From Antedon mediterranea (lineage: Eukaryota > Animalia > Echinodermata), in NCBI RefSeq assembly GCF_964355755.1, contig NC_092673.1, positions 10,168,001 through 10,232,000 of the forward strand: DNA of 64,000 nucleotides. The letters are read 5' to 3'. Within the stretch, counting starts at the first letter, position 1. The number at the start of each line of letters is the position of its first letter. A model generated the notes under the pieces. It made no database searches. It was not told the DNA's origin and saw only the letters and a program-made list of their open reading frames with translations. This document shows positions 2,470 to 64,000 of this stretch, in pieces. The position numbers were made by a program, and so were the translations under genes.

Positions 2470-5400
2470 AGCTTCAAACGGATTTGGAGACGTTTTAGAC
2501 CATTTTGTGCATTTCGATGAAACTTTTCACACAAAACATCAAAGTGCACAAAATAGCTTCAAATCGCATTTGGAGACGTTTTAGACCATTTTGTGCATTT
2601 CGATGAAACTTGGTTACACAAAAAAATCAAAGTGCTTAAAATCACATCTGAAACCATTTTAGACCATTTTGAGCATTTCTATAAAACTTTTACAAAAAAT
2701 GTTTTAAACCATTTTGTGCATTTCGATGAAACTTGATTACAAAAAAACATCAAAGTGCTTCAAATCACATTTGAAACCGTTTTAGAACATTTTGAGCATT
2801 TCGAAAAAACTTGTTAACATAAAAACACCAAAGTGCTTAGAATAGCTTCAAAACGGATTTGGAGACGTTTTAGACAATTTTGTGCATTTCGTTAAAACTT
2901 TTCACACAAAAACATCAAAGTGCATACAATAGCTTAATATCGTATTTGGAGACGTTTTAGACCATTTTGTGCATTTCGATGAAACTTTTAACACAAAACA
3001 TCAAAGTGCACAAAATAGCTTCAAATCGCATTTGGAGACGTTTTAGACCATTTTGTGCATTTCGATGAAACTTTTCACACAAAAACAACAAAGTGCATAC
3101 AATAGCTTAATATCGTATTTGGAGACGTTTTAGACCATTTTGTGCATTTCGATGAAACTTTTCACACAAAACCATCTAATTGCACAAAATAGCTTCAAAT
3201 CGCATTTTGAGACGTTTTAGACCATTTTGTGCATTTCGATGAAACTTTTCACACAAAAACAACAAAGTGCATACAATAGCTTAATATCGTATTTGGAGAC
3301 GTTTTAGACCATTTTGTGCATTTCGATGAAACTTTTCACACAAAAACATCAAAGTGCACAAAATAGCTTCAAATCGCATTTGGAGACGTTTTAGACCATT
3401 TTGTGCATTTCGATGAAACTTGGTTACACAAAAAAATCAAAGTGCTTAAAATCACATCTGAAACCATTTTAGACCATTTTGAGCATTTCTATAAAACTTT
3501 TACAAAAAATGTTTTAAACCATTTTGTGCATTTCGATGAAACTTGATTACAAAAAAACATCAAAGTGCTTAAAATCACATTTGAAACCGTTTTAGAACAT
3601 TTTGAGCATTTCGAAAAAACTTGTTAACATAAAAACACCAAATTGCTTAGAATAGCTTCAAAACGGATTTGGAGACGTTTTAGACAATTTTGTGCATTTC
3701 GTTAAAACTTTTCACACAAAAACATCAAAGTGCATACAATAGCTTAATATCGTATTTGGAGACGTTTTAGACCATTTTGTGCATTTCGATGAAACTTTTA
3801 ACACAAAACATCAAAGTGCACAAAATAGCTTCAAATCGCAGTTGGAGACGTTTTAGACCATTTTGTGCATTTCGATGAAACTTTTCACACAAAAACAACA
3901 AAGTGCATACAATAGCTTAATATCGTATTTGGAGACGTTTTAGACCATTTTGTGCATTTCGATGAAACTTTTCACAAAAAAAACATTAAAGTCCACAAAA
4001 TAGCTTCAAATCGCATTTGGAGACGTTTTAGACCATTTTGTGCATTTCGATGAAACTTGATTACACAAAACATCAAAGTGCACAAAATAGCCTCAAATCG
4101 CATTTGCAGACGTTTTAGACCATTTTGTGCATTTCGATGAAATTTGATTACACAAAAACATCAAAGTGCTTAAAATCACATTTGAAACCGTTTTAGACCA
4201 TTTTGAGTATTTCGATAAAACTTTTCACACAAAAACATCAAAATACATACAATAGCTTAATATCGTATTTGGAGACGTTTTAGACAATTTTGTGCATTTC
4301 GATGAGACTTTTCACACAAAAACATCAATGTGCATACAACAGCTTATTATCGTATTTGGAGACGTTTTTGACCATTTTGTGCATTTCGATGAACCTTTTC
4401 ACACAAAACCATCAAAGTGCACAAAATAGCTTCAAATCGCATTTGGAGACTTTTTAGACCATTTTGTGCATTTCGATGAAACTTGATTACACAAAAATAT
4501 CAAAGTGCTTAAAATCACATTTGAAACCGTTTCATACCATTTTGAGCATTTCTATAAAACTTTTCACACAAAACATTAAAGTGCACAAAATAGCTTTAAA
4601 TCGCATTTGGAGACGTTTTAGATTTTTTTCTGCATTTCAATGAAACATGGTTACACAAAAACATCAAAGTGCTTAAAATCACATTTGAAACAGTTTTAGA
4701 CCATTTCAAGCATTTCTATAAAACTTTTGACACAAAAACATCAAAATACATTCAATAGCTTATTATCGTATTTGGAGACGTTTAGACGATTTTGAGCATT
4801 TCGATGAAACTTTTCACAGAAAAACAACAAAGTTGCCAACATACAATAGTTTAATATCGTATTCGGAGACGTTTTAGACCATTTTGTGCATTTCTATGAA
4901 ACTTTTCACACAAAAACATCAAAGTGCATAAAATAGCTTAATATCGTATTTGGAGACGTTTTAGACCATTTTGTGCATTTCGATGAAACTTTTCACACAA
5001 AACATCAAAGTGCACAAAATAGCTTCAAATCGCATTTGGAGACGTTTTAGACCATTTTGTGCATTTCGATGAAACTTGGTTACACAAAAACATCAAAGTG
5101 CTTAAAATCACATCTGAAACCATTTTAGACCATTTTGAGCATTTCTATAAAACTTTTACAAAAAACGTTTTAGACCATTTTGTGCATTTCGATGAAACTT
5201 GATTACAATAAAACATCAAAGTGCTTAAAATCACCTTTGAAACCGTTTTAGAACATTTTGAACATTTCGAAAAAACTTGTTAACATAAAAACACCAAAGT
5301 GCTTAGAATAGCTTCAAAACGGATTTGGAGACGTTTTAGACAATTTTGTGCATTTCGTTAAAACTTTTCACACAAAAACATCAAAGTGCATACAATAGCT

Positions 5401-6086
5401 TAATATCGTATTTGGAGACGTTTTAGACCATTTTGTGCATTTCGATGAAACTTTTAACACAAAATATCAAAGTGCACAAAATAGCTTCAAATCGCATTTG
5501 GAGACGTTTTAGACCATTTTGTGCATTTCGATGAAACTTTTCACACAAAAACAACAAAGTGCATACAATAGCTTAATATCGTATTTGGAGACGTTTTAGA
5601 CCATTTTGTGCATTTCGATGAAACTTTTCACACAAAACCATCAAATTGCACAAAATAGCTTCAAATCGCATTTTGAGACGTTTTAGACCATTTTGTGCAT
5701 TTCGATGAAACTTTTCACACAAAAACAACAAAGTGCATACAATAGCTTATTATCGTATTTGGAGACGTTTTAGACAATTTTGTGCATTTCGATGAAACTT
5801 TTCACATAAAACAACAAAGTGTACAATATAGCTTCAAATCGCATTTGGAGACGTTTTAGACCATTTTGTGCGTTTCATTACACAAAACATCAAAGTGCAC
5901 AAAATAGCTTCAAATCGCATTTGGAGACGTTTTAGACCATTTTGTGCATTTCGAAAAAACTTGGTAACATAAAAAAACACCAAAGTGCTTAGAATAGCTT
6001 CAAAACGGATTTAGTGACGTTTTAGACCATTTTGTGCATTTCGATGAGACTTTCCACACAAAAACATCAATGTGCATACAACAGCT
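2470..6086 (+). repeat. AT-rich satellite DNA, ~86-87 bp monomer (left arm)
   Basis: GGAGACGTTTTAGACCATTTTGTGCATTTCGATGAAAC recurs, e.g. at 2486 and 2572; shorter variant monomers are also present. Confidence 0.95.
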
Positions 6087-6233
6087 TTTTGACACATGTG
6101 AGCCCGATAAACAAAAACAAGGAAACAAGTATTGGTTGTAAAGTTATTTAATATGAATGGCAAGTCATCGTTGCAGCATGCACGTAAAAGGAAAACATAA
6201 AAAAGGAACATTGGGATGCTCTGAAAGGGCCAA
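6087..6233 (-). repeat. Split direct repeat B2 (147 bp)
   Basis: Identical by eye to 6413-6559. Confidence 0.92.
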
Positions 6234-7880: not shown

Positions 7881-9200
7881 TAGATTGGTTGTAAGTGCTT
7901 TGGTATCTTTAGCGGTGTGCGGTTCATACTGTGCTCCTCTAGCATGGCCTCCGTTTCCTGAAAACGAGAAAGAGCGTCACATATCCTGTTTTGCTTACCA
8001 GGGATGTGCCTGGCTGTAAACTGAATGTTGTTTAGTAGTAACAAAAGGACGATAGCGCGAACCACTCTCATGACCTTTTCGTTTGATGACAATTTTTTGT
8101 TAAGCACATATACATCAGCTAGGTTATCACAGTGGAAAACTACATGGGTGTTGGCTAGCTGTTTTGCAAAAATCGAAAGCATGACATAGATGGGGTAAAT
8201 TTCGAGAACCATGATGTCGAACATTTTCCAAGTTTCCGGCCAGTGGCCTTGAATCCAGAACTTTTGGAAGGTCGCACCAAGTGCGGTTTTTGAGGCATCA
8301 GAGGAGAAATGTAAACGCTGCGAGTCAAATTTTTGTGGGGGTGAAAAATGGTAACGCCATTGTGTTTGCTAAGAAAGTCGGCCCAAATTTGGAGATCCTC
8401 CTTTGCTGAGTCAGAAAGGTGAATAGTTGAAAAGGGGTTAGTTAGACCGGCCGTTAGGGCATTAAGCCTTCTTAGGAACGCCAGTCCAGAGGGTATAACC
8501 CAGGTGGCAAATTGTAGCTTTTCAAAGAGATTGGGGGGCTCTCAATGTAGTTCAGTGAAGTTTTGAACTTTAAAGGGAGTAACGTAATTTTATTATCTCA
8601 GATGGAAGCCTGTCTTACATTTTCTGTAAATCAAGTTCAATACCCAGGAAGGAAATGGTGGTGGTGGGTGAAATTGTTTTGTGCGGTGCTAGAGGTATGC
8701 CACCGCGGTCAGCAAGCGCCTTGGATATCTTCAAGGAGTTCGCACACAGTTGGTGTGTGTCTTCAATGACGAGGATATCGTCTAATATTTTCACGTTATT
8801 GGGCTGTTTTAACTTTTTTATAAGGAAAAATTTCACTCCGTCAGAAAACTTATTGAATATTTGCCACGAAGATCCGCCGCCTTGGGGAAGCGTTTTATCG
8901 TAGTAATACTGGCCTAACCACGTGAAACCTGTGAGGTGATATTGGCATGGCCTCCGTTTCCTGAGTGGGATGTAAATGTATTAGTCTGTATGCGTCACTG
9001 GTGTCCGTCTTGGCCATGAATGCCGGGTGATTGTGTATGTCAATTATGTCTATTGCGTTGGCAATTGTTTCGTAATGAACTGTTATGCAAAACCCAGGGA
9101 TGTTGTGATTGACAGCGTTTGAGTCGTAGGGATAGGAGAGGTTGTGGAGGATACGACATTTTTCAGGTACGGAATTTCCGGAAGGTTGTTGATGATAGCT
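7838..9200 (-). pseudogene. Reverse transcriptase / RNase H of the retroelement, frameshifted
   Basis: KCRILHNLSYP; MAKTDTSDAYRLI; YDKTLPQG; ILDDILV; FLGIELD; SSDAS; LEIYPI; FHCDN; HIPGKQNRICDALSR. Confidence 0.9.
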
Positions 9201-13158: not shown

Positions 13159-16100
13159 TATTATCGTATTTGGAGACGTTTTTGACCATTTTGTGCATTT
13201 CGATGAAACTTTTCACACAAAACCATCAAAGTGCACAAAATAGCTTCAAATCGCATTTGGAGACGTTTTAGACCATTTTGTGCATTTCGATGAAACTTAA
13301 TTACACAAAAATATCAAAGTGCTTAAAAACACATTTTAAACCGTTTTATACCATTTTGAGCATTTCGATAAAACTTTTCACACAAAACATTAAAGTGCAC
13401 AAAATAGCTTTAAATCGCATTTGGAGACGTTTTAGATTTTTTTTTCTGCATTTCGATGAAACTTGGTTACACAAAAACATCAAAGTGCTTAAAATCACAT
13501 TTGAAACCGTTTTAGACCATTTCAAGCATTTCTATAAAACTTTTGACACAAAAACATCAAAATACATTCAATAGCTTATTATCGTATTTGGAGACGTTTA
13601 GACGATTTTGAGCATTTCGATGAAACTTTTCACACAAAAACAACAAAGTAGCCTACATACAATAGCTTAATATCGTATTCGGAGACGTTTTAGAACATTT
13701 TGTGCATTTCGATGAAACTTTTCACACAAAACATCAAAGTGCACAAAATAGCTTCAAATCGCATTTGGAGACGTTTTAGACCAATTTGTGCATTTCGATG
13801 AAACTTTTCACACAAAAACAACAAAGTACATACAATAGCTTAATATCGTATTTGGAGACGTTTTAGACAATTTTGTGCATTTCGATGAAACTTTTCACAC
13901 AAAAAAACAATGTTCACAAAATAGCTTCAAATCGCATTTGGAGACGTTTTTGACCATTTTGTGCGTTTCATTACACAAAACATCAAAGTGCACAAAATAG
14001 CTTCAAATCGCATTTGTAGACGTTTTAGACCATTTTGTGCATTTCGAAAAAACTTGGTAACATAAAAACACCAAAGTGCTTAGAATAGCTTCAAAATGTA
14101 TTTGGAGACGTTTTAGAACATTTTGTGCATTTCGATGAGACTTTTCACACAAAAACATCAATGTGCATACAACAGCTTATTATCGTATTTGGAGACGTTT
14201 TTGACCATTTTGTACATTTCGATGAAAATTTTCACACAAAACATCAAAGTGCAAAAATAGCTTCAAATCGCATTTGGAGACGTTTTAGACCATTTTGTGC
14301 GTTTCATTACACAAAACATCAAAGTGCACAAAATAGCTTCAAATCGCATTTGGAGACGTTTTAGACAATTTTGTGCATTTCGAAAAAACTTGGTAACATA
14401 AAAACACAAAAATGCTTAGAATAGCTTCAAAACGAATTTGGAGACGTTTTAGACCATTTTATGCATTTCGATGAGACTTTTTCACACAAAACATCAATGT
14501 GCATACAACAGCTTATTATCGTATTTGGAGACGTTTTTGACGATTTTGTGCATTTCGATGAAACTTTTCACACAAAACCATCAAAGTGCACAAAATAGCT
14601 TCAAATCGCATTTGCAGACGTTTTAGACCATTTTGTGCATTTCGATGAAACTTGATTACACAAAAATATCAAAGTTCTTAAAATCACATTTGAAACCGTT
14701 TAGACCATTTTGTGCATTTCGATGAAACTTTTCACACAAAAACAACAAATTGCATACAATAGCTTAATATCGTATCTGGAGACGTTTTAGACCATTTTGT
14801 GCATTTCGATGAAACTTTTTACACAAAAACATCAAAGTGCTTAAAATCACATTTAAAACCGTTTTAGACCATTTCGAGCATTTCTATAAAGGTTTTGACA
14901 CAAAACATCAAAGTGCACAAAAGAGCTTCAAATCGCATTTGGAGACGTTTTAGACCATTTTGTGCATTTCGATGAGACTTTTCACTTAAAAACATCAATG
15001 TGCATACAACAGCTTATTATCGTATTTGGAGACGTTTTTGACCATTTTGTGCATTTCGATGAAACTTTTCACACAAAACATCAAAGTGCACAAAATAGCT
15101 TCAAATCGCATTTGGAGACGTTTTAGACCATTTTTTTGCGTTTCATTACACAAAACATCAAAGTGCACAAAATAGCTTCAAATCGCATTTTGAGACGTTT
15201 TAGAGCATTTTGTGCATTTCGATGAGACTTTTCACACAAAAACATCAATGTGCATACAAAAGCTTATTATCGTATTTGGAGACGTTTTTGACCGTTTTGT
15301 GCATTTCGATGAAACTTTTCACACAAACCCATCAAAGTGCACAAAATAGCTTCAAATCGCATTTGCAGACGTTTTAGACCATTTTGTGCATTTCGATGAA
15401 ACTTGATTACACAAAAACAACAAAGTGCATACAATAGCTTAATATCGTATTTGGAGAGGTTTTAGACCATTTTGTGCATTTCGATGAAACTTTTCACACA
15501 AAAACATCAAAGTGCTTAAAATCACATTTGAAACCGTTTTAGACCATTTCGAGCATTTCTATAAAACTTTTGACAAAAAACATCAAAGTGCACAAAAGAG
15601 CTCCAAATCGCATTTGGAGACGTTTTAGACCATTTTGTGCATTTCGATGAGACTTTTCACACAAAAACATCAATGTGAATAAAACAGCTTATTATCGTAT
15701 TTGGAGACGTTTTAGACCATTTTGTGCATTTTGATGAAACTTGAATACAAAAAAACATCAAAGTGCTTAAAATCACATTTGAAACCGTTTTAGAACATTT
15801 TCATCATTTCGAAAAAACTTGTTAACATAAAAACAGCAAAGTGAATACAATAGCTTAATATCGTATTTGGAGACGTTTTAGACCATTTTGTGCATTTCGA
15901 TGAAACTTGAATACACAAAAACATCAAAGTGCTTAAAATCACATTTGAAACCGTTTTAGAACGTTTTCATCATTTCGAAAAAACTTGTTAACATAAAAAC
16001 ATCAAAGTGCACAAAATAGCTTCAAATCGCATTTGGAGACGCTTTAGACCATTTTGTGCATTTCGAAAAAACTTGGTAACTTAAAAACATCAAAGTGCAT

Positions 16101-19050
16101 ACAATAGCTTATTATCGTATTTGGAGACGGTTTTGACCATTTTGTCCATTTCGATGAAACTTTTCACATAAAACCATCAAATTGCACAAAACAGCTTATT
16201 ATCGTATTTGGAGACGTTTTTGACCATTTTGTGCATTTCGATGGAACTTTTTACACAAAACATCAAAGTGCACAAAATAGCTTCAAATCGCATTTGGAGA
16301 CGTTTTAGACCATTTTGTGCATTTCGATGAAACTTGATTACACAAAAACATCAAAGTTCTTAAAATCACATTTGAAACCGTTTTAGAACATTTTCATCAT
16401 TTCGAAAAAACTTGTTAACATAAAAACAGCAAAGTGCATACAATAGCTTATTATCGTATTGGGAGACGTTTTTGACCATTTTGTCCATTTCGATGAAACT
16501 TTTCACACAAAACCATCAAATTGCACAAAATAGCTTCAAATCGCATTTGGAGACGTTTTAGACCATTTTGTGCATTTCGATGAAAGTTTTCACACAAAAA
16601 CAACAAAGTGCATACAATAGCTTAATATCGTATTTGGAGACGTTTTAGACCAGTTTGTGCATTTCGATGAAACTTTTCACACAAAACAACAAAGTGCACA
16701 AAATACCTTCAAATCGCATTTGGAGACGTTTTAGACCATTTTGTGCGTTTCATTACACAAAACATCAAAGTGCACAAAATAGCTTCAAATCGCATTTGCA
16801 GACGTTTTAGACCATTTTGTGCATTTCGAAAAAACTTGGTAACATAAAAACACCAAAGTGCTTAGAAGAGCTTCAAAATGGATTTGGATACGTTTTAGAC
16901 AATTTTGTGCATTTCGTTAAAACTTTTCACACAAAAACATCAAAGTGCATACAATAGCTTATTATCGTATTTGGAGACGTTTTTGACCATTTTGTGCATT
17001 TCGATGAAACTTTTCACACAAAACCATCAAATTGCACAAAATAGCTTCAAATCGCATTTGGAGACGTTTTAGACCATTTTGTGCATTTCGATGAAACTTT
17101 TCACACAAAAACAACAAAGTGCATACAATAGCTTAATATCGTATTTTGAGACGTTTTAGACCATTTTGTGCATTTCGATGAAACTTTTCAACCAAAAACA
17201 TCAATGTGCATACAACAGCTTATAATCGTATTTGGAGACGTTTCTGACCATTTTGTGCATTTCGATGAAACTTTTCACACAAAACATCAAAGTGCACAAA
17301 ATAGCTTCAAATCGCATTTGGAGACGTTTTAGACCAATTTGTGCATTTCGATGAAACTTTTCACACAAAAACAACAAAGTACATACAATAGCTTAATATC
17401 GTATTTGGAGACGTTTTAGACCATTTTGTGCATTTCGATGAAACTTTTCACAAAAAAAACATTAAAGTCCACAAAATAGCTTCAAATCGCATTTGGAGAC
17501 GTTTTAGACCATTTTGTGCATTTCGATGAAACTTGATTACACAAAACATCAAAGTGCACAAAATAGCCTCAAATCGCATTTGCAGACGTTTTAGACCATT
17601 TTGTGCATTTCGATGAAATTTGATTACACAAAAACATCAAAGTGCTTAAAATCACATTTGAAACCGTTTTAGACCATTTTGAGTATTTCGATAAAACTTT
17701 TCACACAAAAACATCAAAATACATACAATAGCTTAATGTCGTATTTGGAGACGTTTTAGAACATTTTGTGCATTTCGATGAAACTTTTCACACAAAAACA
17801 TCAATGTGCACAAAATAGCTTCAAATCGCATTGAGAGATGTTTTAGACCATTTTGTGCATTTCGATGAAACTTTTCACACAAAAACATCAAAGTGCACAA
17901 AACAGCTTCAAATCGTATTTGGAGACGTTTTAGACAATTTTGTGCATTTCGATGAAACTTTTCACACAAAACAACAAAGTGCACAAAATAGCTTCAAATC
18001 GCATTTGGAGACGTTTTAGACCATTTTGTGCATTTCATTACACAAAACATCAAAGTGCACAAAATAGCTTCAAATCGCATTTGGAGACGTTTTAGACCAT
18101 GTTGTGCATTTCGAAAAAAACTTGATTACACAAAAATATCAAAGTGCTTAAAATCACATTGGAAACCGTTTTAGACCATTTTGAGCATTTCGATAAAACT
18201 TTTCACACAAAACATTAAAGTGCTTAAAATCACATTTGAAAACGTTTTAGACCATTTCGAGCATTTCTATAAAACTTTTTACACAAAACATCAAAGTGCA
18301 CAAAAGAGCTCCAATTCGCATTTGGAGACGTTTTAGACCATTTTGTGCATTTCGAAAAAACTTTTCACACAAAAACATCAAAGTGCATACAATAGCTTAA
18401 TATCGTATTTGGAGACGTTTTAGACAATTTTGTGCATTTCGATGAAACTTTTCACACAAAAACATCAAAGTGCACAAAATAGCTTCAAATCGCATTTTGA
18501 GAGGTTTTAGACAATTTTGTACATTTCGATGAAACTGGATTACACAAAACATCAAAGTGCACAAAATAGCTTCAAATCGCATTTGCAGACGTTTTAGACC
18601 ATTTTGTGCATTTCGATGAAACTTGATTACACAAAAACATCAAAGTGCTTAAAATCACATTTGAAACCGTTTTCAGACCATTTTGAGCATTTCGATAAAA
18701 CTTTTCACACAAAACATCAAAGTGCACAAAATAACTTCAAATCGCATTTAGAGACGTTTTAGACCATTTTGTGCTTTTCGAAAAAACTTAGTAACATAAA
18801 AAAACACCAAAGTGCTTAGAATAGCTTCAAAACTGATTTAGTGACGTTTTAGACCATTTTGTGCATTTCGAGACTTTTCACACAAAAACATCAATGTGCA
18901 TACAACAGCTTATTATCGTATTTGGAGACTTTTTTGACCATTTTGTGCATTTCGATGAAACTTTTCACACAAAACCATCAAAGTGCACAACATAGCTTCA
19001 AATCGCATTTGGAGACGTTTTAGACCATTTTGTGCATTTCGATGAAACTT
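13159..19050 (+). repeat. AT-rich satellite DNA, ~86-87 bp monomer (right arm)
   Basis: Same monomer as 2470-6086, resuming in register after the retroelement. Confidence 0.95.
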
Positions 19051-51005: not shown

Positions 51006-53313
51006 AATAGTCTATTTATATGAAATGAATGATCAATCAATGAAAAATAATGCCATGGAACTTTGTTTCTGATTTTAAAAAAGGTCCACTTGTTTAGGCC
51101 TGACATTTACAACCCTCAAAATATCTCACTTTCAAAAACAATATTTATTTTCTATTAAAAAAAAAAGAAAAAAGATATTCGTAGAGGTTCGAACCCACTA
51201 CTGCGAGAACTCAAACCTGAGCATTACCGGTTACGCCATAAACCAGTAGATGACAGAAGAGCTGATAACAGTCTATTTATATGAAATGAATGATCAATCA
51301 ATGAAAAATAATGCCATGCAACTTTTTTTCTGATTGAAAAAAATGTCCACTTGTTTAGGCCTGACATTTACAACCCTCAAAATATCTCACTTTCAAAAAA
51401 AATATTTATTTTCAATTTAAAAAAAAGGGAAAAGAAATATCCCTAGAGGTTTGAACCCACTACTGCGAGCACTGAAACTTGAGCATTTCAAAAACAATAT
51501 TTATTTTAAATAAAAAAAAAAAAAAAAAAAAAAATATCGGTAGAGGTTCGAACCCACTAGCTTAGTGAGAGCACTCAAACTTGAGCATTACCCGTTACGC
51601 CACAAACCAGTAGATGACTGAAGAGCTGATAATAGTCTATTTATATGAAATTAATGATCCATCAATGTAAAATGATGTTATGCAACTTTGTTTCTGATTT
51701 AAAAAAAGGTCCACTTGGTTAGGCTTGACATTTAAAACCATACAAATATCTCACTTTCAAAAACAATATTTATTTAAAAAAAAAAAAAATGAAAAAAAAT
51801 ATTCCTAGAGGTTCGAACCCACTACTGAGAGAACTCAAATCTGAGCATTACCGGTTACGCCACAAACCAGTAGATGAGTGAAGAGCTGATAATAGTCTAT
51901 TTATATGAAATGAATTATCCATCAATGTAAAATGATGTTATGCAACTTTGTTTCTGATTTAAAAAAAGGTCCACTTGTTTAGGCCTGACATTTACAACCC
52001 TCAAAATATCTCACTTTCAAAAACAATATTTATTTTCAATTTAAAAAAAAAAAGAAAAAAAATATCCCTAGAGGTTCGAACCCACTACTGAGAGAACTCA
52101 AACCTGAGCATTACCGGTTACGCCACAAACCAGTAGATGAGTGAAGAGCTGATAATATTCTATTTATATGAAATGAATAATAAATCAATGTAAAATGATG
52201 TTATGCAACTTTGTTTCTGATTTAAAAAAAGGTCCACTTGGTTAGGCTTGACATTTAAAACCATAAAAATATCTCCCTTTAAAAAACAATATTTATTTTC
52301 AAATAAAAAAAAAAGAAAAAAATATCCCTAGAAGTTTGAACCCACTATTGAAATCACTCAAACCTGACCATTACCCGTGACGCCGCAAACCAGTATATGA
52401 CTGAAGAGCTGATAATAGTCTATTTATATGAAATGAATGATCAATCAATGAAAAATAATGCCATGCAACTTTGTTTCTGATTTTAAAAAAGGTTCACTTG
52501 TTTAGGCCTGACAGTTGCAACCCTCAAAATATCTCACTTTCAAAAACAATATTTATTTTCAATTAAAAAATAAAGAAAAAAAATACCTGTATAGGTTCGA
52601 ACCCACTACTGAGAGCACTCAAACCTGAGCATTACTCGTTACGCCACAAACCAGTAGATGATTGAGGAGCTGATAATAGTCTATTTATATGAAATGAATG
52701 ATCAATCAATGAAAAATAATGCCATGCAACTTTGTTTCTGATTTTAAAAAAGGTCCACTTGTTTAGGCCTGACATTTACAACACTCAAAATATCTCACTT
52801 TCAAAAACAATATTTATTTTCAATTAAAAAAAAAAAATATCCGTAGACGTTCGAACCCACTAGTGAGAGCACTCAAACTTGAGCATTACCCGTTACGCCA
52901 CAAACCAGTAGATGACTGAAGAGCTGATAATACTCTATTTATATGAAATGAATGATCAATCAATGAAAAACAATGCCATGCAACTTTGTTTCTGATTTAA
53001 AAAAAGGTCCACTTGTTTAGGCCTGACATTTACAACACTCAAAATATCTCACTTTCAAAAACAATATTTATTTTCAATTTAAAAAAAAGAAAGAAAAAAA
53101 AAATTCGTAGAGGTTCGAACCCACTACTGCGAGAACTCAAACCTGAGCACTACCAGTTACGCCAAAAACCAGTAGATGAGTGAAGAGCTGATAATAGTCT
53201 ATTTATATGAAATGCATGATCAATCAATGAAAATAATGCCATGCAACTTTGTTTCTAATTTTAAAAAAGGTCCACTTGTTTAGGCCTGACATTTACAACC
53301 CTCAAAATATCTC
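51006..53313 (-). repeat. Tandem array of ~262-bp units, each with tRNA-type Pol III A and B boxes and an oligo-T run
   Basis: B-box-like GGTTCGAACC or variants at ~51186, 51448, 51545, 51810, 52073, 52333, 52594, 52848 and 53112; minus-strand A box TGGCGTAAC(C/G)G upstream in most units; T-runs ~10 nt downstream. Confidence 0.85.
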
Positions 53314-53350
53314 AGATATTATACATTTTTTTTTTGTTATCATGTTTTTG

Positions 53351-53364
53351 TATATAATATATAA
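53351..53364 (+). promoter_or_regulatory. Candidate TATA box for the CARD/PolB unit
   Basis: TATATAATATATAA 65-78 bp upstream of the ATG at 53429; the AT-rich context makes a chance match possible. Confidence 0.3.
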
Positions 53365-53428
53365 TTTTCTTTATTTTCATTCGTGGCTTTCAACATCGAC
53401 ATAACCTTGTCTCCTCTGTGCTGAAGGA

Positions 53429-54208
53429 ATGGAAGAAAGTTACTTTGAAGGCGAACCGTGGCTGACGAAACATCACAAACTCCTCACCACGTCCATGAAC
53501 CTGTCGGCGGTACTCGAAGCATTGGTCGTCAGAGAAATATACTTGCGGGAATTCGAGAACTTTGTACTGCGTATGGACAGAGAGAAAGGGGTTAAAGAGA
53601 ATCGGATGGCCTATTATCTCATCGACGACATTCGAAGGTATCCGAAATTGCACGCTAACGGAGCTTTCGTGGATTCTCTTAAATGCGCCGGCCACCACGA
53701 TCTTGTTGTCGCTTTGAGAAAAGGAGCGAAAACAACTTTGAACACGCCGTTCGAGAAAGATCATCCTTTTTCTTCCTTCAAGTCGGCGATGGTCCGTCTT
53801 TCGCACTACGAAATCGATCAAACATACAAGAAACGATTGCGAGAGAGGAACGTTCTTCTGAAACGCATCGACCGGTTCGCTGAAACGATAAATCTGGAGG
53901 CCACCGTCAAACAAATGGTGGTCAGAAGAATTTACAAACCCGAATACGCAAATTTCCTCCTCGACGGTGACAGACAGAGAAACGTTTACTTTTTCCTCAA
54001 CAACGTTCGGAAGCATCAAGACGAGTCCGGTTACAAAGCTTTCGTCGAGTCTCTCAAAGCAACCGGTCAACACGAACTCGCATCGACTTTGGAGAAAAAA
54101 AAATACAAAAAGAAAAAACAGTCTGTCGAAGTTCCAGACTTCGGAATTTTGTCCGATCAAAAGGCGCAATGTTCGTGTATCTGGCACGTGTCAAGTATTC
54201 CAAGATAA
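53429..54208 (+). CDS. Tandem death-fold (2x CARD-like) protein, 259 aa, intact ORF
   Basis: Two ~90-aa internal repeats ending GAFVDSLKCAGHHDLVVAL and GYKAFVESLKATGQHELASTL, typical of CARD helices 5-6; basic C-terminal tail. Confidence 0.75.
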   Translation: MEESYFEGEPWLTKHHKLLTTSMNLSAVLEALVVREIYLREFENFVLRMDREKGVKENRMAYYLIDDIRRYPKLHANGAFVDSLKCAGHHDLVVALRKGAKTTLNTPFEKDHPFSSFKSAMVRLSHYEIDQTYKKRLRERNVLLKRIDRFAETINLEATVKQMVVRRIYKPEYANFLLDGDRQRNVYFFLNNVRKHQDESGYKAFVESLKATGQHELASTLEKKKYKKKKQSVEVPDFGILSDQKAQCSCIWHVSSIPR

Positions 54209-56464
54209 ACGGAAAGTTGTACCTCTACGGCAGAGATCCGGAAGGAAACAGGCTGTCGTTGAAGACGAGGAAAGTGAAATTCACGTCGTACGTCGAAGAC
54301 GAAACGGACGGAGAATGCATCATGCGCAGAGGTGACGATCCAATTTCTTGCGCCAAGAAGTACAGGAGGCCCACGGCCGACGAAAGAAACGGCATCAAGG
54401 TCGACAACCTCTTCGGCAACCTCCCCTCGTCCGTGGGCGACCTGGACGCTCAGTGTGCGGTCGGGGTTCACGGATGCGCTTGGCACAGTTACTCCGAAGA
54501 CAAAGACGGCAACGTCGAAGGCTTGACGTACGACGAGCAGATCCACTTGGAACGACAGAACGTTCACCCGGTGCGACTGTCGGTGTTGTGCGTAGTTCTC
54601 AGGTGGGACGTGAACGGTCGAATAATTTCGGTGATGCTGTCCGACGGAAAGAGACTGCACGGCGAAAATGCGGAGATCGACACGCTGTCGGAAATCGCAA
54701 AGTCGATCGAATCTGCCGACGTGTTCGTGTATCACAGTGGTCGGGTCAAGGACAGCATCGTCGCCAGATGTCGGGTGTGCGAGGTACCCCTTGCCGTAGA
54801 CGGGTTCCCCGTGTGCTTGGACACTTCGAAACACGTACGGTCGCCGGCGGGCGGCGACAACGACTCCGTCTACGATTACGTACATCGGTTACGAATCTTG
54901 TCACGAGCTAGCGGCGAGCTAGTCGGCGAAGAAGCTAGACGACGACGTTTGCGTGCTGGAACGCTACGTGTCGGAGGTGGAAGCGAAAAAATTGGTCGAA
55001 ATCGAGACGAACTTGTCCAGAATAGTGGGAAGGTTCCCCAACGGATCGTCGACCGGCGTCCTTTCGTCGGTGCTGTGCAGAGAAGCGCAGCGTCAGCGTG
55101 TGGTGTTTCCGAGGAGCAATGCGGACCCGAAGCCCAAAGGAAGCGTCAACGAAGACGAAACGTGCAGAGGAGGCCTGGTGCTGGACACCGTGTCCGGTAT
55201 TCACAGAGACGTCGACGTGTACGACTTTCAGTTTTGCTATCCGAGGTTCATCATCGACAAAAACGTGGACAAGTCGACGGCTCTCGAAGACGGCTCTTTC
55301 GTCGACGCCGAAGTACGCGAAGGTCTGCTTCCGTCCGTCATGAAAAGACTGGTGTCGGCTAGAGAACAAAAAAACATCACTCCCCAGAACTCCGCCGTGT
55401 ACAAACAAGCGGCCAACGCATGCGTCGGATTTCTGTGCACGTCTGGCAAGAAAAGCCTTTACAACCACGTGACGGAAAAGTGCAGGGAACAACTGAACGC
55501 GCTAAAAAATTGCGCCGAAGAAAACGGTGCTCGGGTGCTGTACGGCGACACCGACTCGTTGTTTTTGGACATAGTTCCAGGCGGGAGACAGGAGCTGGAA
55601 GAGCAATTCGCCCGAGTCTTGGGCGAAAGAAGCTTTCAAAGGTTCAAACACAGGGAGACGCTTTGCGGCTTGCTGCTGACGGACAAGAAGAAAAGGTATG
55701 CGTGTCTCCATGCCGACGGGAGGGTGAGCACCACAGGGATGACGAGGCCCGGCGTCGAAAAATTCGCGTCTCGACTGGAACAGGTCATGATCGACATAGC
55801 CTTGAGGATCGGAGATAGCAATACGGCGGCCGACCGTTGCGTAAAAGAATTTTGTCGAGTCGTCAACGAACTGAAGGACGACGAAGCGATCGAGGTCCAA
55901 GGCGTTGTTCGAAAGGGCAAAAACGAGACGAACTCTCACAGATTCAAAAAGAGTTGCGCCGCCCTCGGATGCTACAGACAGACGCCTTACCACCTGAAAC
56001 ACGGAGGCGTTTCCTATCATCCGCTGTCGCATTCGTGCATCCATCCGACCGTGGAAGTCGAGCACTTGATCCGAGAGCTGAAACAATTTTGCGAACTCGA
56101 CAGAAGCAACGTTTTGAGCGTAATCGTTTGGAACGCGGAAGCAGGGGACTGCCGAACGAGCATATTGCATCGGTTGAAGGAGATCAAAGATACTTTGGAA
56201 AAGATTCCGACGCACCTGCCCCGGAAGGAGATGCAGCTCTGCGGAGGGTGGAATTTGTTCAGTGGCAGTTGCTGTTCCACGGTGAAGGTGTCGACCGCCG
56301 AAGAAGAGCGACAGGTTAGAAAAAACGAACCGGTCTTTCGAAGCGTAGATCTCGAAAACGGGGAGAGGAGATTATTCATCGTAAGATGTACAAACGCTTT
56401 GTGTTGCGACGCACACCGATTCTGGGGAAAGGCATGGAACTACACAGCAAAAGATGAAGCGTAA
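54169..56464 (+). pseudogene. polB: Family B DNA polymerase (RNA-primed type, ~765 aa) split by one frameshift near 54880-54925
   Basis: LYLYGRDPEG N-terminal motif; GGLVL; motif A DFQFCYP; GLLPSVMKRLV; motif B KQAANACVG; motif C YGDTDSLF; KKKRYAC. Confidence 0.9.
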
Positions 56465-56469
56465 AATAA

Positions 56470-56560
56470 TCCAAAAAAAATAAAAAAATAAATAAAAAAT
56501 AGTTTTAAGTCTACTTTTGAAATAAAAGAAAAAAAGAAATGGTTGAAGGAAATAAAAACA
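56470..56560 (+). terminator. A-rich spacer between convergent genes with several AATAAA polyadenylation signals
   Basis: Multiple AATAAA hexamers right after the polB stop codon. Confidence 0.45.
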
Positions 56561-56617
56561 CAAAAACCAAAAATATTGTTTAACAGTTTTTCTTGTATTC
56601 TTTTGTTTGTCAATTTG

Positions 56618-57805
56618 TCAAAGTATTGCGCATCCGCAAATCACGGTCACGTCCAGATCTTTTACGCCGAGCAGTAGATTCCCTGAAACAAACGACGAAT
56701 CGAGAAATTTGGGTGGTCGTTCGTCGATCTCGTCGTTCATGCATCGTTTCAACCACTTCCTTCTTATCTTGTTTTCGTCAACGGCGAGATCGTCTTCGAC
56801 AGGCTCTAGGTGTTCTCCTAGAAAAAGCGAAATCACCTTTTCCTTGCATTTCCTGTCCGTTTCGTGCAACACGGTCGATTCGGTTATGCAAGAAGGCAAC
56901 GTGGTCCCGGTCGCTCTCAACCGTTTCCAAACGCTTGGCAGGAACACGTCCGAGTCCGTCGTGAAAGCGGTGTGTCTTTCTTTGACCTCGGTGAGTAGCC
57001 TCAGAGGACGGACGAATTAGGCCGAGACGGAATTGAAATATTTTCCGTACGCCCACCAGTCTCTCAACGGGTTCGTTGCTTCTTCCACAACGTCCTCGAC
57101 GAATTCGAAGAATTCCACTTCCGCCAACTCGAAATTCAGGATGCTTTCCGTCGTTTGCGATCCTTCGAAAACAAGACGGGAAGATCTATCGGCCAGACCT
57201 ACCATCAGTCGTTGCGAGGTTTCCAGGGTTAAAAGGGCAGAGAAGAAGTCTGCGTTAAGCCATCCGATCTGGCGTCTGTCGTGCCCGACGAACATCGGAG
57301 GTGGGCCCAAATGCACGCCGCTTCTGCCTACGCCACCTTCCGTCTCGGCCAAATTGTCGAGGCAGGTTTCGACTGCGCAAGCGACGTTCTTCGGACACAA
57401 CGGTAGCGATCTGTTGTACGACAGACACAGATGCCTCAATATTATCATCAGAAGCTCGAAGTAAGGGTTGTCGGATCCGTAACGCCTTCCGTCGAAGTAC
57501 CACTGGAACGTTGGAGAGGGGTTGCCGCTTCTCACAAACACGCTCCAATCGTCCAGAGACTGTAGAGTTCGGGAAAGCGTCGTGTAGTCTGTGTAATCTT
57601 CGATTTTAGTCAACCAGAGACGACCGGTCAGATAACGCCTTCCGTAATCGTTGCCCTCCTCACCGCCACCGTCGTCGTCGTAGTCGTCGTAGTCGTACGA
57701 CTTGAAATGTCTAGGGTCGACTGTCATTATCTTTGACCACCTGACCTGCACGGCAGGTTGAGGCAATCCCAACTTCAACACCGGTCTCTCTTTGAACAAG
57801 TCCAT
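56618..57805 (-). pseudogene. BRO1/BROX-like domain protein (~395 aa) with one in-frame TAA at 57019-57017
   Basis: ORFs 57017..57880 and 56618..56947 share a frame and are separated by a single stop; likely start MDLFKE at 57805. PTFQWYFDGRRYGSDNPYFELLMII resembles the Bro1 F-x-W...D-x-x-FE motif. Confidence 0.5.
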
Positions 57806-57911
57806 AAGAAAGATTCTTGTGAAACATAACAACAACAACAACAACAACAACAACAATAAAAAAATAAATAAAAAACACATATATGTATATAAATTTCAAT
57901 TTCCTTTTATT

Positions 57912-58139
57912 TCAAACGACCATCATTTTCTTAAATTTAGAAGATAAAGTATTTTCACTTTCTGCTTTGCAATCTATCAATCTCTCTATTTTGTCGATCA
58001 CTTCGCATAAGTCTTTTTTGTTTTTTTCATCCACATCGCCGTCGTTGCCACTGTGTTGCTTTTTTTTTTTAAGGCGTAGCACTTTCAGAACCCTTTCCAC
58101 GTGGAAGACCGGCATTTCGATGTATATGTTTGTGCTCAT
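57912..58139 (-). CDS. Small basic/coiled-coil hypothetical protein, 75 aa
   Basis: ATG in good Kozak context; GC-richer core between AT-rich spacers; KKKK possible NLS. Confidence 0.45.
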   Translation of the reverse strand: MSTNIYIEMPVFHVERVLKVLRLKKKKQHSGNDGDVDEKNKKDLCEVIDKIERLIDCKAESENTLSSKFKKMMVV

Positions 58140-58613
58140 TCTTGTGTTGTTTTTTTTCCACTTTCTTTTCTCCTTTTCTGTGAATTTTGTAAATATTATT
58201 CTTTTCTTCCAAGTCTATTTCTGTATTAATATACTGTAAAATGTTACTATTTAATCAGTTATAGTTGGTTTTCTAAAATGTTTTTTTTTTTGCCCCTGCC
58301 TATTTCGAGTCGTTTTTCTCCGTCTGGAAAGAATCGCCAGCTTTTTCGGCATGATTCCTTAGTCCGTTATTACTTGTAAAACAATCTTTCTTCTTTTTTT
58401 TTTCTTTTCGGACTCTTCTTCGTCCACGACCTCGACAGGTTCAGCAACATTTCCAACGTTCTGAAAGTTCTGAAAGGCCTTGATCGGTCGTCTTCTCATC
58501 TACAAAGAAGAGTTTCTAAAGTCCAAATACTTGATCTTAATGTTTTTCACAGGTAAGAACTCATCGGGAGAATCTGATATTACAAAAAAAAAAAAAAAAA
58601 AAAAAAAATTTTT

Positions 58614-59365
58614 TCACTTTGTGACGTACCGTTTTCGTTTGCAACCGGACCTTTTGCAGCAGATCGGACGGTTCGACGGACTTATCTCCAGCAGTGTTCG
58701 ATCGTTCAACGGTTCGCCACAATCCAGCTCCTCTGCAATGCACTTTCGGGACAGTTCTGAATCGAATTTGTCGACGTGCCTTAATATCATGTCGAGGAAC
58801 GTGCGACCGGTTTGCTAGAGAGAAGCGACCGTCTGAAACTGAGTGTTGCAGCAAAGCGAAGGAGAAAACAACTGGAACTTTCTCGCTCGTCCGTCCACGT
58901 GGTACGGGATGGTGAACTTGACCGACGGAAACAGATCGTTGCTGTCGACCGTCAAAGATTCTAAAAGCTTAAGTCGTTCGACTACGTCCAGCACGCCGTA
59001 CATCCTACCTGCATGGTTCAGGTTGTTTGTCGAAATGTGCATAGGTACGCTCTTGTATTTTCTCTTATCGCCTGTTGCAGTTGGTAGTTGAGCGAAGTTT
59101 TCGTTCTCACGTTGAAGTTACCCCTCGTCGTGATGTTCGTCTATCCTGTGGAAACGAAATACAGCGCGGTCGATCCTCTTTTCAGAGGCGATTGAAATTC
59201 TATCATGTCGTCTTGCAATTTCGTGCCCCTCATGTGGATGGATTGCGCCGTCTCGCGCGTGTCGTACGGATATCGATGCACGATGTTTTGCGAAGACACC
59301 ACGTTCACCAGGAAGAAGTTCATCGACGCTCTGTTGCAACTGGATTGAACGGTTGTGTACGTCAT
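58614..59365 (-). pseudogene. Divergent TATA-binding-protein-like gene (two stops, one frameshift)
   Basis: Reconstructed LVNVVSSQNI...STALYFVSTG*TNIT...ISTNNLNHAG...NDLFPSVKF...KFQLFS...TFLDMIL is collinear with both TBP saddle repeats. Confidence 0.65.
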
Positions 59366-60057
59366 GATTGTTTCGTATTTTTCCTCGCCGTCTGTTGCAA
59401 TCGGGGTGGTTTTTTCACACCTTTTTTCAGAACCTGGATCCTCCGGATGCTGTTGTCCACCTTCACCAGCACGTCTCCGTTGGAGGTGCGTTGATGTTCC
59501 GAAAACATGGAGGCCAGAGACTGACGTTCCCGGTCGTTGTACGTGGCAAACACGACCGTTTCTGCGAATAACGACAGCAGATCGAGCGCCGATGTGAGGA
59601 ACGACATCGGCAGATCGGGAGCGTCGACCATGAGCTCCACGTGATCGACAAAGGTGGTTTTCGCCGCTTGTCCTTTTTCGTTCTGTAACCGTCGAACCTT
59701 AAAGTCTCCCACCACGATGCCCTCTTCTCTGTAGAGTAAGTGAACAAGGTTTTTCGTGGAAAACACCACCGCCAAACCGTCAAACGACTCGACTCTGGTC
59801 CTATGATCGCCTTAGTAGACGACGTCATCGACGTAAAACTTTCTCTTCTCCGGAATCGGGTTCAGGTTGTTCCTCAGCCGGTTCGTGAACCGTTCGCCGA
59901 GCACGTTCCGGAACCGATCCAACAAGGAAACGGGATCGGACGGCTTCGAGGAGAGAGCTTTGCAGATCCTCGGATCCGAGTTGATGTACGTGTACCAGAA
60001 CGTCGCCTCCTGTTCCGTCAGGCCGCCTCTCAGTTCCACCAGCTGCCGACAAAACAT
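59362..60057 (-). pseudogene. Hypothetical protein (~231 aa) with one in-frame stop at 59814-59812
   Basis: ORFs 59812..60057 and 59362..59775 are in the same frame; its stop overlaps the TBP-like start (ATGA). Confidence 0.6.
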
Positions 60058-60885
60058 TCAATTCACCAGGGAAAAAAAGTCATGCGCCCTCTATCGGTTG
60101 CTACCTTCAATATCTGCTCAGCGAAGCGTGCATAGTAACCGGAAGTGATGTTTTTTTCAAAACATTATTTCCGTAATCTTTAATCAACGAATGAGAAGCC
60201 TTCAAATTGTTTTTCTCATGAATAATTCATATTTAGTTGAAGATAAGGTATGGAAGAACCATGTGACGATCTCTTTTAAACGAAACGGCCATTTTAAGAC
60301 AGTCTAGTAAACCAACGATTTCGAGAGTAAGTTTTTAGATATTTAACAGTTTTTGAGGATCGTTTTTTTGTGTAATTTTGCACGCATATAAAATCAAAAC
60401 CTAATTTTTTAAGAAGTAAATGCAAACAAATATAATAACTATATACTATTTATATTTGTTACAAAAAAAATCACGCTGGTGTTATGTCCCATTTTTTTTT
60501 AAATGAAGCTGAAAATTGGTATATAATCCACGTGGTTAGTATTTCGGCCTAGCACTCTATATCACATGTCTAGGCCTAAACATAGGGCAAATCCAGCAGC
60601 AATGTAAATACGAAGTTCAAGATCAATAAAGAGACTTTGTATAAATATTAACATAATGTTATTATTGTAATTTTTATGCAATAATAATAAAAACATGTTA
60701 TATATAGGCCTTTTAGTCATAAACCATTATTATTACAATTATTATAGCCTACTAACTAAGATAATAGACCTCCAGGCCTAACCTAGTTAGACAATTATGT
60801 AGTAGGTATATTATTAATATAGTATAGACAATATAAAAAGGTTACTGTTTTGATCTGAGATTTTCACTAATTTTTGCCTACTATT

Positions 60886-63538
60886 TTATTTAAATTTCAG
60901 CTGCTTTCGGCTTTTTGGGTGTTCGACCTCCTTGATTATTTCAGGGACTGTGGACATGGTATGCGCTTTCATAATAGACGTCGTTCTTGAATTTTCATTA
61001 CGCATACCCCAAAATGACCGTTTCCTTCTGTTTATTGAGGCATGTATGGACTCTCCTCCCTGCTCTCCTAGCAGTCCTAACCCAACTCCCCACTTCTTAA
61101 TTGATGGCAGCACATGATCCTCAAGTAAATGGAGCTTAGGTGATATTCTCTCATTGTATTGGCGAAAGTGGTCCATAAAAGCCATTATTTTTTTCATCTG
61201 TATAAATATAAACGCAAATTATTTTAAATATAATTGATTACTTTTGTTCTTGTTCCAAAATTTTACAACTTGTAAAAAAATCTAGTTGATACATCTATAG
61301 TGGTTTGAAATAAAGAAAAATCATACCAATTGATTGAATGTCATCGGTTGTTAACACCCGGCAATGGTCAATACTGTTGTGTACTGCTGAATATTTAGAG
61401 AGTAAGTTTATGTATTTTACTTCAATCTCTGCTGCCTTCGCCATTATCAGTTGTCCCTTACTAATTGAAAAGAGATCTGCCTCTATACTGACCACTCTAG
61501 AAATGTTCTTGCATAGATCATCTATGACGTCAGACTTTTATTTAAAAAAAATTATAATACAGTATTGTAATAGTAGTAGTAATGTAAATAAGGATCATGT
61601 ATATAAAGAGGCCTACTACTATTATGTATTAGAATTAGAATACATAATTCTACATACAGTTAATGTGCATACCTTTAGTGCCTTGTGCACATGATTGCCA
61701 TTAAAAGATTTCCCATGAAATGGCTGTCGTTTAATACCATGATAATGGAGTGTCTGGTCCATAGATGCTACTATTGGACCAGTCCCAAACCTCAGTTGTA
61801 CGTCCATTTGCCTTTCCTATAGAAAAATACTTATGCAGGTAATTATGTTTGCTTTCATAGGTACAGAATAACCATGTGAGGTTCTAAGGCATCGATTTTT
61901 AGGGTAAGTAACAAGTAAAAACAAACAATATAATTATGAATGAAATATTGACGTACTGTTTCTGTCAACTCATCTTGAAGCTTTACTAGTTCATGCAATT
62001 GTTTAGACATTTTTGCCTTAGCATCCCCACTTTGATTTTTTAAATACAATAAAGGGATATCGTCTTCTATTTTCTCAATTTGTAGTAAAAGTTGATCTTT
62101 TTCTCTTGCCAATTCTGGAATTAAAAACAATTTAATTTATTTTTATTTATTTATTGAATTTTCTGCCATATACAATACAACGAAGACAAAACAAATATAA
62201 AAAGCAAGGAAAGACAACAAATAAAAACGAAAGGAGAGAATAAATAAATTATACCTTCTTGCTTCATAGCCACTGCCTTCACTAACTTATCAAACTTTGA
62301 TTTTGCTTGATCATCATCATAATCATCTTCTTCTGTACGATTTTTTCTTTTCATCAATATAGCAACATCCATTTTGTGGCATTCGCTTTCCAGCATCTCA
62401 TACAGTTTTTTGAATATCCCTAAAGAGATATGGAGGGTAGGGACGGACACCTGTAAAGATAATTATAAAAAAATACTTACGACATTTAAGATTATTTACT
62501 TGGTATTTAGAGTACAAGATAAAAATTACTTACTTGCTCAATTTCAATATCAATCATAGGCTCCCATATTACACTAAGTGATACATTCTTGGACATTTCC
62601 TTTTTCCCTCCATGTTCCTCAAATGCCTTTAAGTTTTCAGCCAATGACCTCAGTGTCCTACACTCTCCATTAATAGACTTTGTTTGCTGTTCCTCTTTGG
62701 ATTTTTTACAAAATAGGCAACAATACCGGCCTAAAACAAATATAATTTACTGTTAATATTATTTCACATTCTATTTTTTGTTTTGATAGAAAAAACATGT
62801 ATTGTTTTTTTATATTATGTTTTTTTACTACTTACAGTTTGGTCCATTGATTCCGTAGATTTTGATTAGAAAATCATAGTCACCAAAACAAAACATTCGC
62901 AGATTATACTCTCTGTGAAAGAAAAAAAATCCACATTTATAGATAAAGATAAGTGTATTTGTTACTCTGTTGTAATACATAGTATTTTATCCATGATAAA
63001 TGAAACAACATAACTACCTCCACTGTAGACCATTCAGTCCCATAACTTGCTCCGTCACTCTTGGTAATGTTTGCGACAAGTTATAGACGCTGTCCTTTGC
63101 ATGGAACATCAATACTACAACCACATTTCTGACTGCATTCGGATCAGCAACACTTACAATTTGTATTTCTGCCTTAAAACTCTCACCACCATGATCTCCG
63201 CCAAACTTCAGCCATATCTCATTGCCGTTGTATATTTTAAGTTTATTTTGCCTGTAAAATATAATAACATCGTTATTTTTTTTTGACAGGAACATACAAA
63301 ATGTGTGTACAGAATTGAGAAGATAAAATTATAAACTTACTGGCGGTACTCATCAAGGTAATTAAAAACCAAAGCCTTTATATCTGGTATGTGAACCACA
63401 GCTACCTCTTTCAAACTGAGACCTTCGTGCCGACTGGAATTAAACAACAGTAGCTCATTTTTTGATTTCAACTCGCAAAGCAGTTCCTTCTGGCATTCTC
63501 TCATCCTCTTCTCTGAAGGTATTAGTCCTGGAACATAC
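60886..63538 (-). CDS. Multi-exon Chapaev/CMC-like DDE transposase (RAG1/Transib-related fold); 5' part not resolved
   Basis: GGDHGGESFK; FGDYDFL; CCLFC; PTLHISLG; FNGNH; KLHLLEDH; GEQGGESIH. GT-AG exons approx. 63538-63341, 63251-63018, 62912-62836, 62730-62534, 62450-62255, 62114-61957, 61816-61673, 61534-61327 and 61197-60886; possible 1-bp homopolymer frameshift at the start of the last exon. Confidence 0.8.
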
Positions 63539-64000
63539 CTGAAAGTATAATAATATACTGTATATTTACAGTACTGTACTGTATATAATTGTTTATTCAT
63601 ATAAATACAGTAGGTATTACTTAAAGCTCAGGTACAGGCATGAATTTTAAATACAATATCTGGTTAATTGTACATAAATCAAATATTAGTAACAGAAATC
63701 AAGACGAAAAAACATGAATTTCCCTTAATATGGTCAAATACAAAATTTTGAAAAATTCTGCCATAAAAACCTGGAAGACTTTTTTTTCAGTAGTTAGGTA
63801 GTTTAACCTAATGTAATAACATATCTGGTGACTCCCTAGAAGGTGAAAAAAGATGGTGGATATACGGTGGATAATTTTTGCTATAGCATGAAAATAAAAA
63901 TCTGAAGTTGATTAAAAATACCAGAAATGTAAAATTCAAGTTATATTACCTATATTTAGTCATCTGATAACATTTTTTACCACACCGTTTATTTTTCATA

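Follow-up and report, generated by a model that had tools for sequence, protein, structure and literature searches.

A tandem-repeat gene of likely CARD type at the head of a decaying, virus-like polymerase island in Antedon mediterranea

Results

The CARD-like gene

The window analysed here is a stretch of 64,000 nucleotides from Antedon mediterranea (NCBI RefSeq assembly GCF_964355755.1, contig NC_092673.1, forward-strand positions 10,168,001 to 10,232,000). It contains a 6.7 kb island (53337..60057), a partial copy delimited by composition, gene layout and contigs of other samples, whose first gene is an intronless open reading frame (ORF) for a protein with two likely CARD-type repeats. 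The island's genes are intronless and CpG-rich, with a GC content of about 45-58 % and a CpG observed/expected ratio of 1.3-1.55. They are separated by AT-rich gaps, and the sequence around the island, made up of satellites and remnants of transposons, has a GC content of about 31 %. As a preliminary description of this DNA had stated, the ORF is intact and runs on the plus strand from the ATG at 53429 to the TAA at 54208, encoding 259 amino acids (AA). Its composition resembles that of the island (GC at third codon positions 0.54, CpG observed/expected 1.55). TATA-like words, identified by consensus match only, stand in the AT-rich leader 66-78 nt 5' of the ATG (53351..53363, plus strand), and a pyrimidine-rich stretch lies just 5' of the ATG.

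An internal duplication is directly visible in the translation. Repeat 1 (AA 12-98; 53462..53722, plus strand) and repeat 2 (AA 143-223; 53855..54097, plus strand), each of about 85 AA and joined by a linker of about 40 AA, are identical at 30 of 81 positions (37 %) and can also be aligned at the DNA level. Their alignment score of 134 was reached in none of 5000 shuffles, in which the maximum was 57. Both repeats have a predicted pI of 9.2-9.5. The sole feature of the 35-AA tail is the basic run KKKYKKKK (AA 223-230; 54095..54118, plus strand), a possible nuclear localisation signal. The tail carries no hydrophobic anchor (maximum 19-residue hydropathy 1.05), and no effector domain was found after the repeats by translation, Pfam or tail analysis, in agreement with the preliminary description.

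Evidence for the fold

A CARD-type death fold is likely for the repeats, as judged from sequence comparison and modelling. The closest Pfam model, CARD_2 (PF16739), matches repeat 2 with an E-value of 0.003 and 18 bits, below its curated cut-off of 28.2, and repeat 1 has no Pfam match of its own. Neither CARD (PF00619) nor a DED profile matches the protein in Pfam. A PDB profile search leans towards the death fold without significance, with the MDA5 tandem CARD (2CARD) as a weak match, and the nearest language-model neighbours are cellular CARD clusters, also without significance. The weak model of repeat 2 shows six helices (pLDDT 60) and repeat 1 aligns to it, in keeping with the roughly 90-AA, six-helix domain of the death-fold superfamily. 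The preliminary description of two CARD-like repeats therefore stands for the repeats, while their CARD identity is indicated by weak, converging signals of which no profile or structure match reaches significance.

Homologs of the protein were found neither among 1.84 billion representatives at E<=0.001 nor among 488 word-sharing candidates of 142-454 AA nor in 50,697 phage records. The full-length single-sequence fold reached a pLDDT of only 40, which makes its Foldseek matches meaningless. None of 33 matches in BFVD reached E<=0.001, and a 91-AA lymphocystis virus protein, a vFLIP and a Clandestinovirus MAVS-like protein were at noise level. In tandem-DED vFLIPs, helix 6 carries an RxDL motif. 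The positions of this protein that probably correspond read HHDL and QHEL, and the vFLIP feature is thus absent.

These signals would also be compatible with a different small bundle of helices, such as a nuclear, DNA-associated or polymerase-associated factor. Structure comparison leans towards death folds, but PAH and histone-fold chains score equally high, and the basic repeats and tail, together with the overlap of the gene with the polymerase start, would suit such a factor. As the death fold is favoured alike by the sequence profile, the language-model features and the structure comparison, and repeat length and helix pattern match CARD, this explanation is considered unlikely, though marginally the most probable of the alternatives.

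The overlapping polymerase gene

A compact family B DNA polymerase gene (54169..56464, plus strand) was identified by Pfam (PF00136, E=1.5e-14) and homolog alignment, with a frameshift near 54870-54920. Over its first 240 residues, the product shares 48 % identity with a full-length homolog of 738 AA, in an alignment that begins at residue 1. This places the start at the ATG at 54169 and therefore supports the previously noted overlap with the CARD-like ORF, which amounts to 40 nt. The first AATAAA words on the plus strand 3' of the CARD-like ORF follow the polymerase (56479..56556) and may mark a shared transcript end. In combination with the TATA-like words 5' of the ORF, this fits one early transcript.

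The window polymerase and its relatives P0002 and P0097 match PF00136 and not the protein-primed PF03175 that is characteristic of Polintons and adintoviruses. Among 92 matches of the polymerase search, two stood far above the others, namely the 738-AA protein from an ENA contig and a model from Anneissia japonica, whose cluster comprises five gene models in that feather star. The close relatives and the window polymerase fall into one clade with a long stem in a tree of limited scope, which was built with a quick method from the C-terminal piece of the window polymerase, five close relatives and 30 of 90 distant matches. Since it includes no eukaryotic or viral reference polymerases, this tree assigns no family. 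The lineage of about 740 AA (window 54169-56464; P0002, P0003, P0094-P0097) keeps the polymerase motifs and has a Cys-rich C-terminus, without a Pfam exonuclease match. The Anneissia copies bear the RefSeq names 'DNA polymerase delta-like' and 'II-like' and look element-borne. No earlier description of this polymerase family in crinoids was found in the literature searched, which covered few subscription papers.

Copies in other samples

Parts of the island are present in 11 runs of six studies. Four runs from three studies and two organisms were compared, X3, X5, and X6 and X8 (organism B), leaving out organisms C and D (shares 0.06-0.14). One compared sample could be the source of the window itself and may not be independent. 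No run listed as RNA carries the island. X5 may be an RNA run, by conjecture alone, and the depth of contigs represents neither copy number nor expression. Contigs of X3 and X5 run through ORF and polymerase without interruption and differ from the window in 25 of 1658 and 67 of about 3130 letters, respectively. None of the four runs shares the window's frameshift in the polymerase or several of its other indels, and the window therefore holds a more decayed copy. It is also a partial one, since contigs of organism B continue 1.2-1.6 kb beyond 60052 into sequence absent from the window and a single contig of X3 links the island with flanking sequence of the window. In organism B, about 53505-54051, the core of both repeats, is uncovered, with contigs of equal depth on both sides. 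This is a lead, not evidence, that the gene was lost or replaced there, with no joint across the gap among the matches listed.

Further genes of the island

A gene of 395 codons without a known family lies on the minus strand (56618..57805) and is interrupted at codon 263 by an in-frame stop. Logan and ENA assemblies contain full-length homologs (396-405 AA, 40-43 % identity), and no match was found in Pfam, NCBIfam or the atlas. Its sole PDB profile match, a designed repeat protein, was taken as spurious. The orphan family of about 400 AA (window 56618-57805, minus strand, and P0101-P0103) shares the near-invariant stretch DGRRYGSDNPYFELLM. It is a candidate hallmark protein of the element. 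As the polymerase and this gene have relatives in other assemblies, the island appears from sequence to be a member of an element family present in several animals. No loci related to either gene were found in IMG/VR or JGI metagenomes. The remaining minus-strand frames match no family. They comprise a small basic ORF (76 AA from Met, 57912..58142), a 167-codon frame with an in-frame stop and a Cys-rich end (58617..59117) and a 231-codon frame with an in-frame stop (59362..60057).

In the partial copy, neither a capsid, packaging ATPase, integrase or transposase nor hallmarks of Nucleocytoviricota, herpesviruses or Naldaviricetes (capsid, packaging, pif) were recognised, and the island ends carry no terminal inverted or direct repeats. 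For this reason, the label 'virus' rests on polymerase, gene layout and composition.

Flanks of the island

The island is bordered on its left by a tandem array (51486-53314) of seven 260-bp units that contain GTTCGAACCC, without a tRNA or Rfam match. We take this element to resemble a tRNA B-box, and the array probably represents a host satellite of SINE origin. At 21616-49025, a purine-rich unit of 19 bp is repeated about 1368 times over 27 kb with extreme strand skew, and arrays of an 87-bp AT-rich satellite lie at 2700-6100 and 13487-19050. Retroelement remnants on the minus strand contain an RNase H1 N-terminal domain (1206-1736, E=7e-17) and a reverse transcriptase fragment (8618-8980, E=2e-6). 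The right flank (60073-64000) is an AT-rich, multi-exon-like minus-strand remnant with a DUF1280 match (63017-63328, E=9e-13). The window contains no tRNA, and 49-64 kb no Rfam match.

Discussion

We tentatively favour the reading that the intact ORF is an accessory gene of a polymerase-bearing, virus-like element and encodes a bivalent CARD decoy. Because each repeat is much more similar to the other than to any known protein, the element may have captured a host CARD and then duplicated the domain. The resulting gene would have been placed at the head of the polymerase gene and expressed early from the AT-rich leader, probably in one transcript with the polymerase. Its product would bind to CARD proteins of the host but not relay the signal, and could cap or sequester CARD assemblies, either Apaf-1 with an initiator caspase or a RIG-I-like receptor (RLR) with MAVS. 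Ranavirus vCARD and human CARD-only proteins act in this way. In the window copy, the gene would be a passenger that chance has so far spared a frame-breaking lesion.

Several findings weigh against this reading. The fold evidence lies below significance throughout, including the CARD_2 score, and other helical folds score like death folds. The viral nature of the island is deduced from a partial copy without recognised capsid, packaging, integrase or transposase genes, and CARD proteins of this kind can also activate signalling. Nevertheless, the protein could plausibly work like a viral CARD decoy, despite failing the Pfam CARD cut-off and lacking the membership features of vCARD and vFLIP proteins. 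The preliminary description as a candidate viral death-fold decoy holds as far as the gene is part of a virus-like polymerase island, and goes further than the evidence on the death fold, the viral nature and the choice of decoy over agonist.

Agonism is the main rival to the decoy reading. Here, gene and fold would be the same, and the tandem CARDs would nucleate host CARD filaments or act as a scaffold for NF-kB or stress signalling that favours the element. The nearest profile, CARD_2, is of the RLR/MAVS type, and isolated RIG-I CARDs suffice for signalling according to the accessible part of PMC9293153. Likewise, the viral CARD protein v-E10 of equine herpesvirus is an activator of NF-kB and JNK (PMC2198798). 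On the other hand, the 259-AA protein has neither a membrane anchor nor an effector tail, characterised viral CARD-only proteins inhibit apoptosis, and a replicating element seems less likely to gain from triggering an antiviral pathway. Overall, an agonist is rather unlikely.

The CARD-like ORF is the only large ORF of the island without a visible break, as the polymerase has its frameshift and the 395-, 167- and 231-codon frames have in-frame stops. The preliminary description had attributed this to chance or host co-option. With lesions as dense as in the other genes of the island, a stretch of 780 nt would remain free of them with a probability of 0.51-0.64. Difference counts are based on 40 of 409 differences, including 24 of the 25 of X3 in 53337-55000. 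Among those listed, 14 fall into the ORF (4 synonymous, 9 missense and 1 earlier stop), and 4 synonymous versus 10 non-synonymous changes give a pN/pS of 0.68 (p=0.35 against neutral; small counts). The 12 ORF differences from the window common to X3 and X5 comprise 4 synonymous and 8 other changes (pN/pS 0.54, p=0.24), small counts that leave room for weak selection. In all four runs, the ORF stops eight codons before the window's stop, which shortens the overlap to 16 nt. For comparison, the broken polymerase has a pN/pS of 0.70 overall among the differences listed, and of 0.30 in the N-terminal piece, the sole piece with near-complete counts. This substitution test, run on copies from other samples, gives no selection signal. 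As the lesion-free probability and the neutral-looking differences show no more intactness than chance gives, chance fits and co-option, with selection keeping the gene intact at this locus, is without support from these small counts and improbable.

The least probable explanation, an exon or fragment of an ordinary host NOD-like receptor, RLR or caspase gene beside the island, draws on the pyrimidine-rich stretch and the cellular CARD look-alikes, and is already largely refuted by the ORF's island-like composition, its contiguity with the polymerase in two samples, the lack of a cellular homolog at E<=0.001 and the absence of NACHT, helicase, caspase or death-fold families from all 78 flanking frames of at least 60 AA scanned within the window, outside the satellite at 21.7-49 kb.

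A broader and more doubtful proposal is that the island is a fragment of an undescribed DNA virus family of echinoderms or related marine invertebrates, with a polymerase-coupled bivalent CARD antagonist and less decayed copies in living individuals. Such a family might be marked by the compact, RNA-primed-type polymerase B and the orphan 400-AA protein, with the antagonist as a CARD counterpart of vFLIP. Viral antagonists reveal which host pathways truly defend against viruses. If the proposal is true, a virus family with a CARD antagonist would point to CARD-based antiviral defence in these animals, by RLR-MAVS or the apoptosome, and would provide a testable handle on CARD-based antiviral and cell-death signalling in invertebrate deuterostomes. 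An as yet unclassified group of animal DNA viruses or elements would also gain a marker. The window copy, a decaying passenger, is mainly a pointer to the element family, and the unclassified carrier element may be a more valuable lead than the CARD-like gene.

Comparison with known systems

Viral CARD-only proteins and tandem-DED decoys are already known. A virus-encoded tandem-CARD-only protein was not found in the literature searched. The portions available of bioRxiv 10.1101/2025.04.19.649669, whose supplements may list these loci, and of PMC10175614 do not mention CARD, crinoid or echinoderm.

Polintons/adintoviruses and Teratorn resemble the island in being integrated, in their family B polymerase and intronless genes, and in having several related copies per genome, as suggested here by the five Anneissia gene models. 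The island differs in its polymerase, which has only about 740 AA and matches PF00136 instead of PF03175, and its partial copy shows no recognised integrase, transposase, capsid or terminal repeat. Equine herpesvirus 2 v-E10 is likewise a virus-encoded CARD protein acting on host CARD signalling. In contrast to the present protein, in which no likeness to Bcl-10 was seen, it is homologous to Bcl-10, activates NF-kB and brings Bcl-10 to membranes (PMC2198798). RIG-I/MDA5 2CARD shares the two tandem CARDs, and is reflected in the nearest Pfam model and the weak MDA5 match. Unlike there, no helicase is present here and the repeats seem to have arisen from a single domain by duplication, and free 2CARD activates MAVS.

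The vFLIPs (MC159, herpesvirus vFLIPs) are tandem death folds without a catalytic domain and a viral weapon against cell death, and together with INCA capping they are precedents for blocking death-fold assembly, as far as the accessible text of PMC11874512 goes. They use DEDs, whereas the sequence evidence here points to CARD, with RxDL absent and a linker of about 40 AA. Ranavirus vCARD (GIV-CARD 027L, FV3 064R) consists of just one CARD of 91 AA, close to human ICEBERG, in an iridoviral carrier. Here, by contrast, there are two repeats in 259 AA, no detectable sequence relative, iridovirus vCARD included, an unclassified carrier, and a host that is likely an invertebrate. GIV-CARD is an early protein that enters the nucleus and prevents apoptosis (PMC4457926), and FV3 vCARD is a precedent for a viral CARD decoy (PMC4974522). 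Like the present protein, vCARD is CARD-only, lacks an effector domain and is encoded in a genome that also encodes a DNA polymerase.
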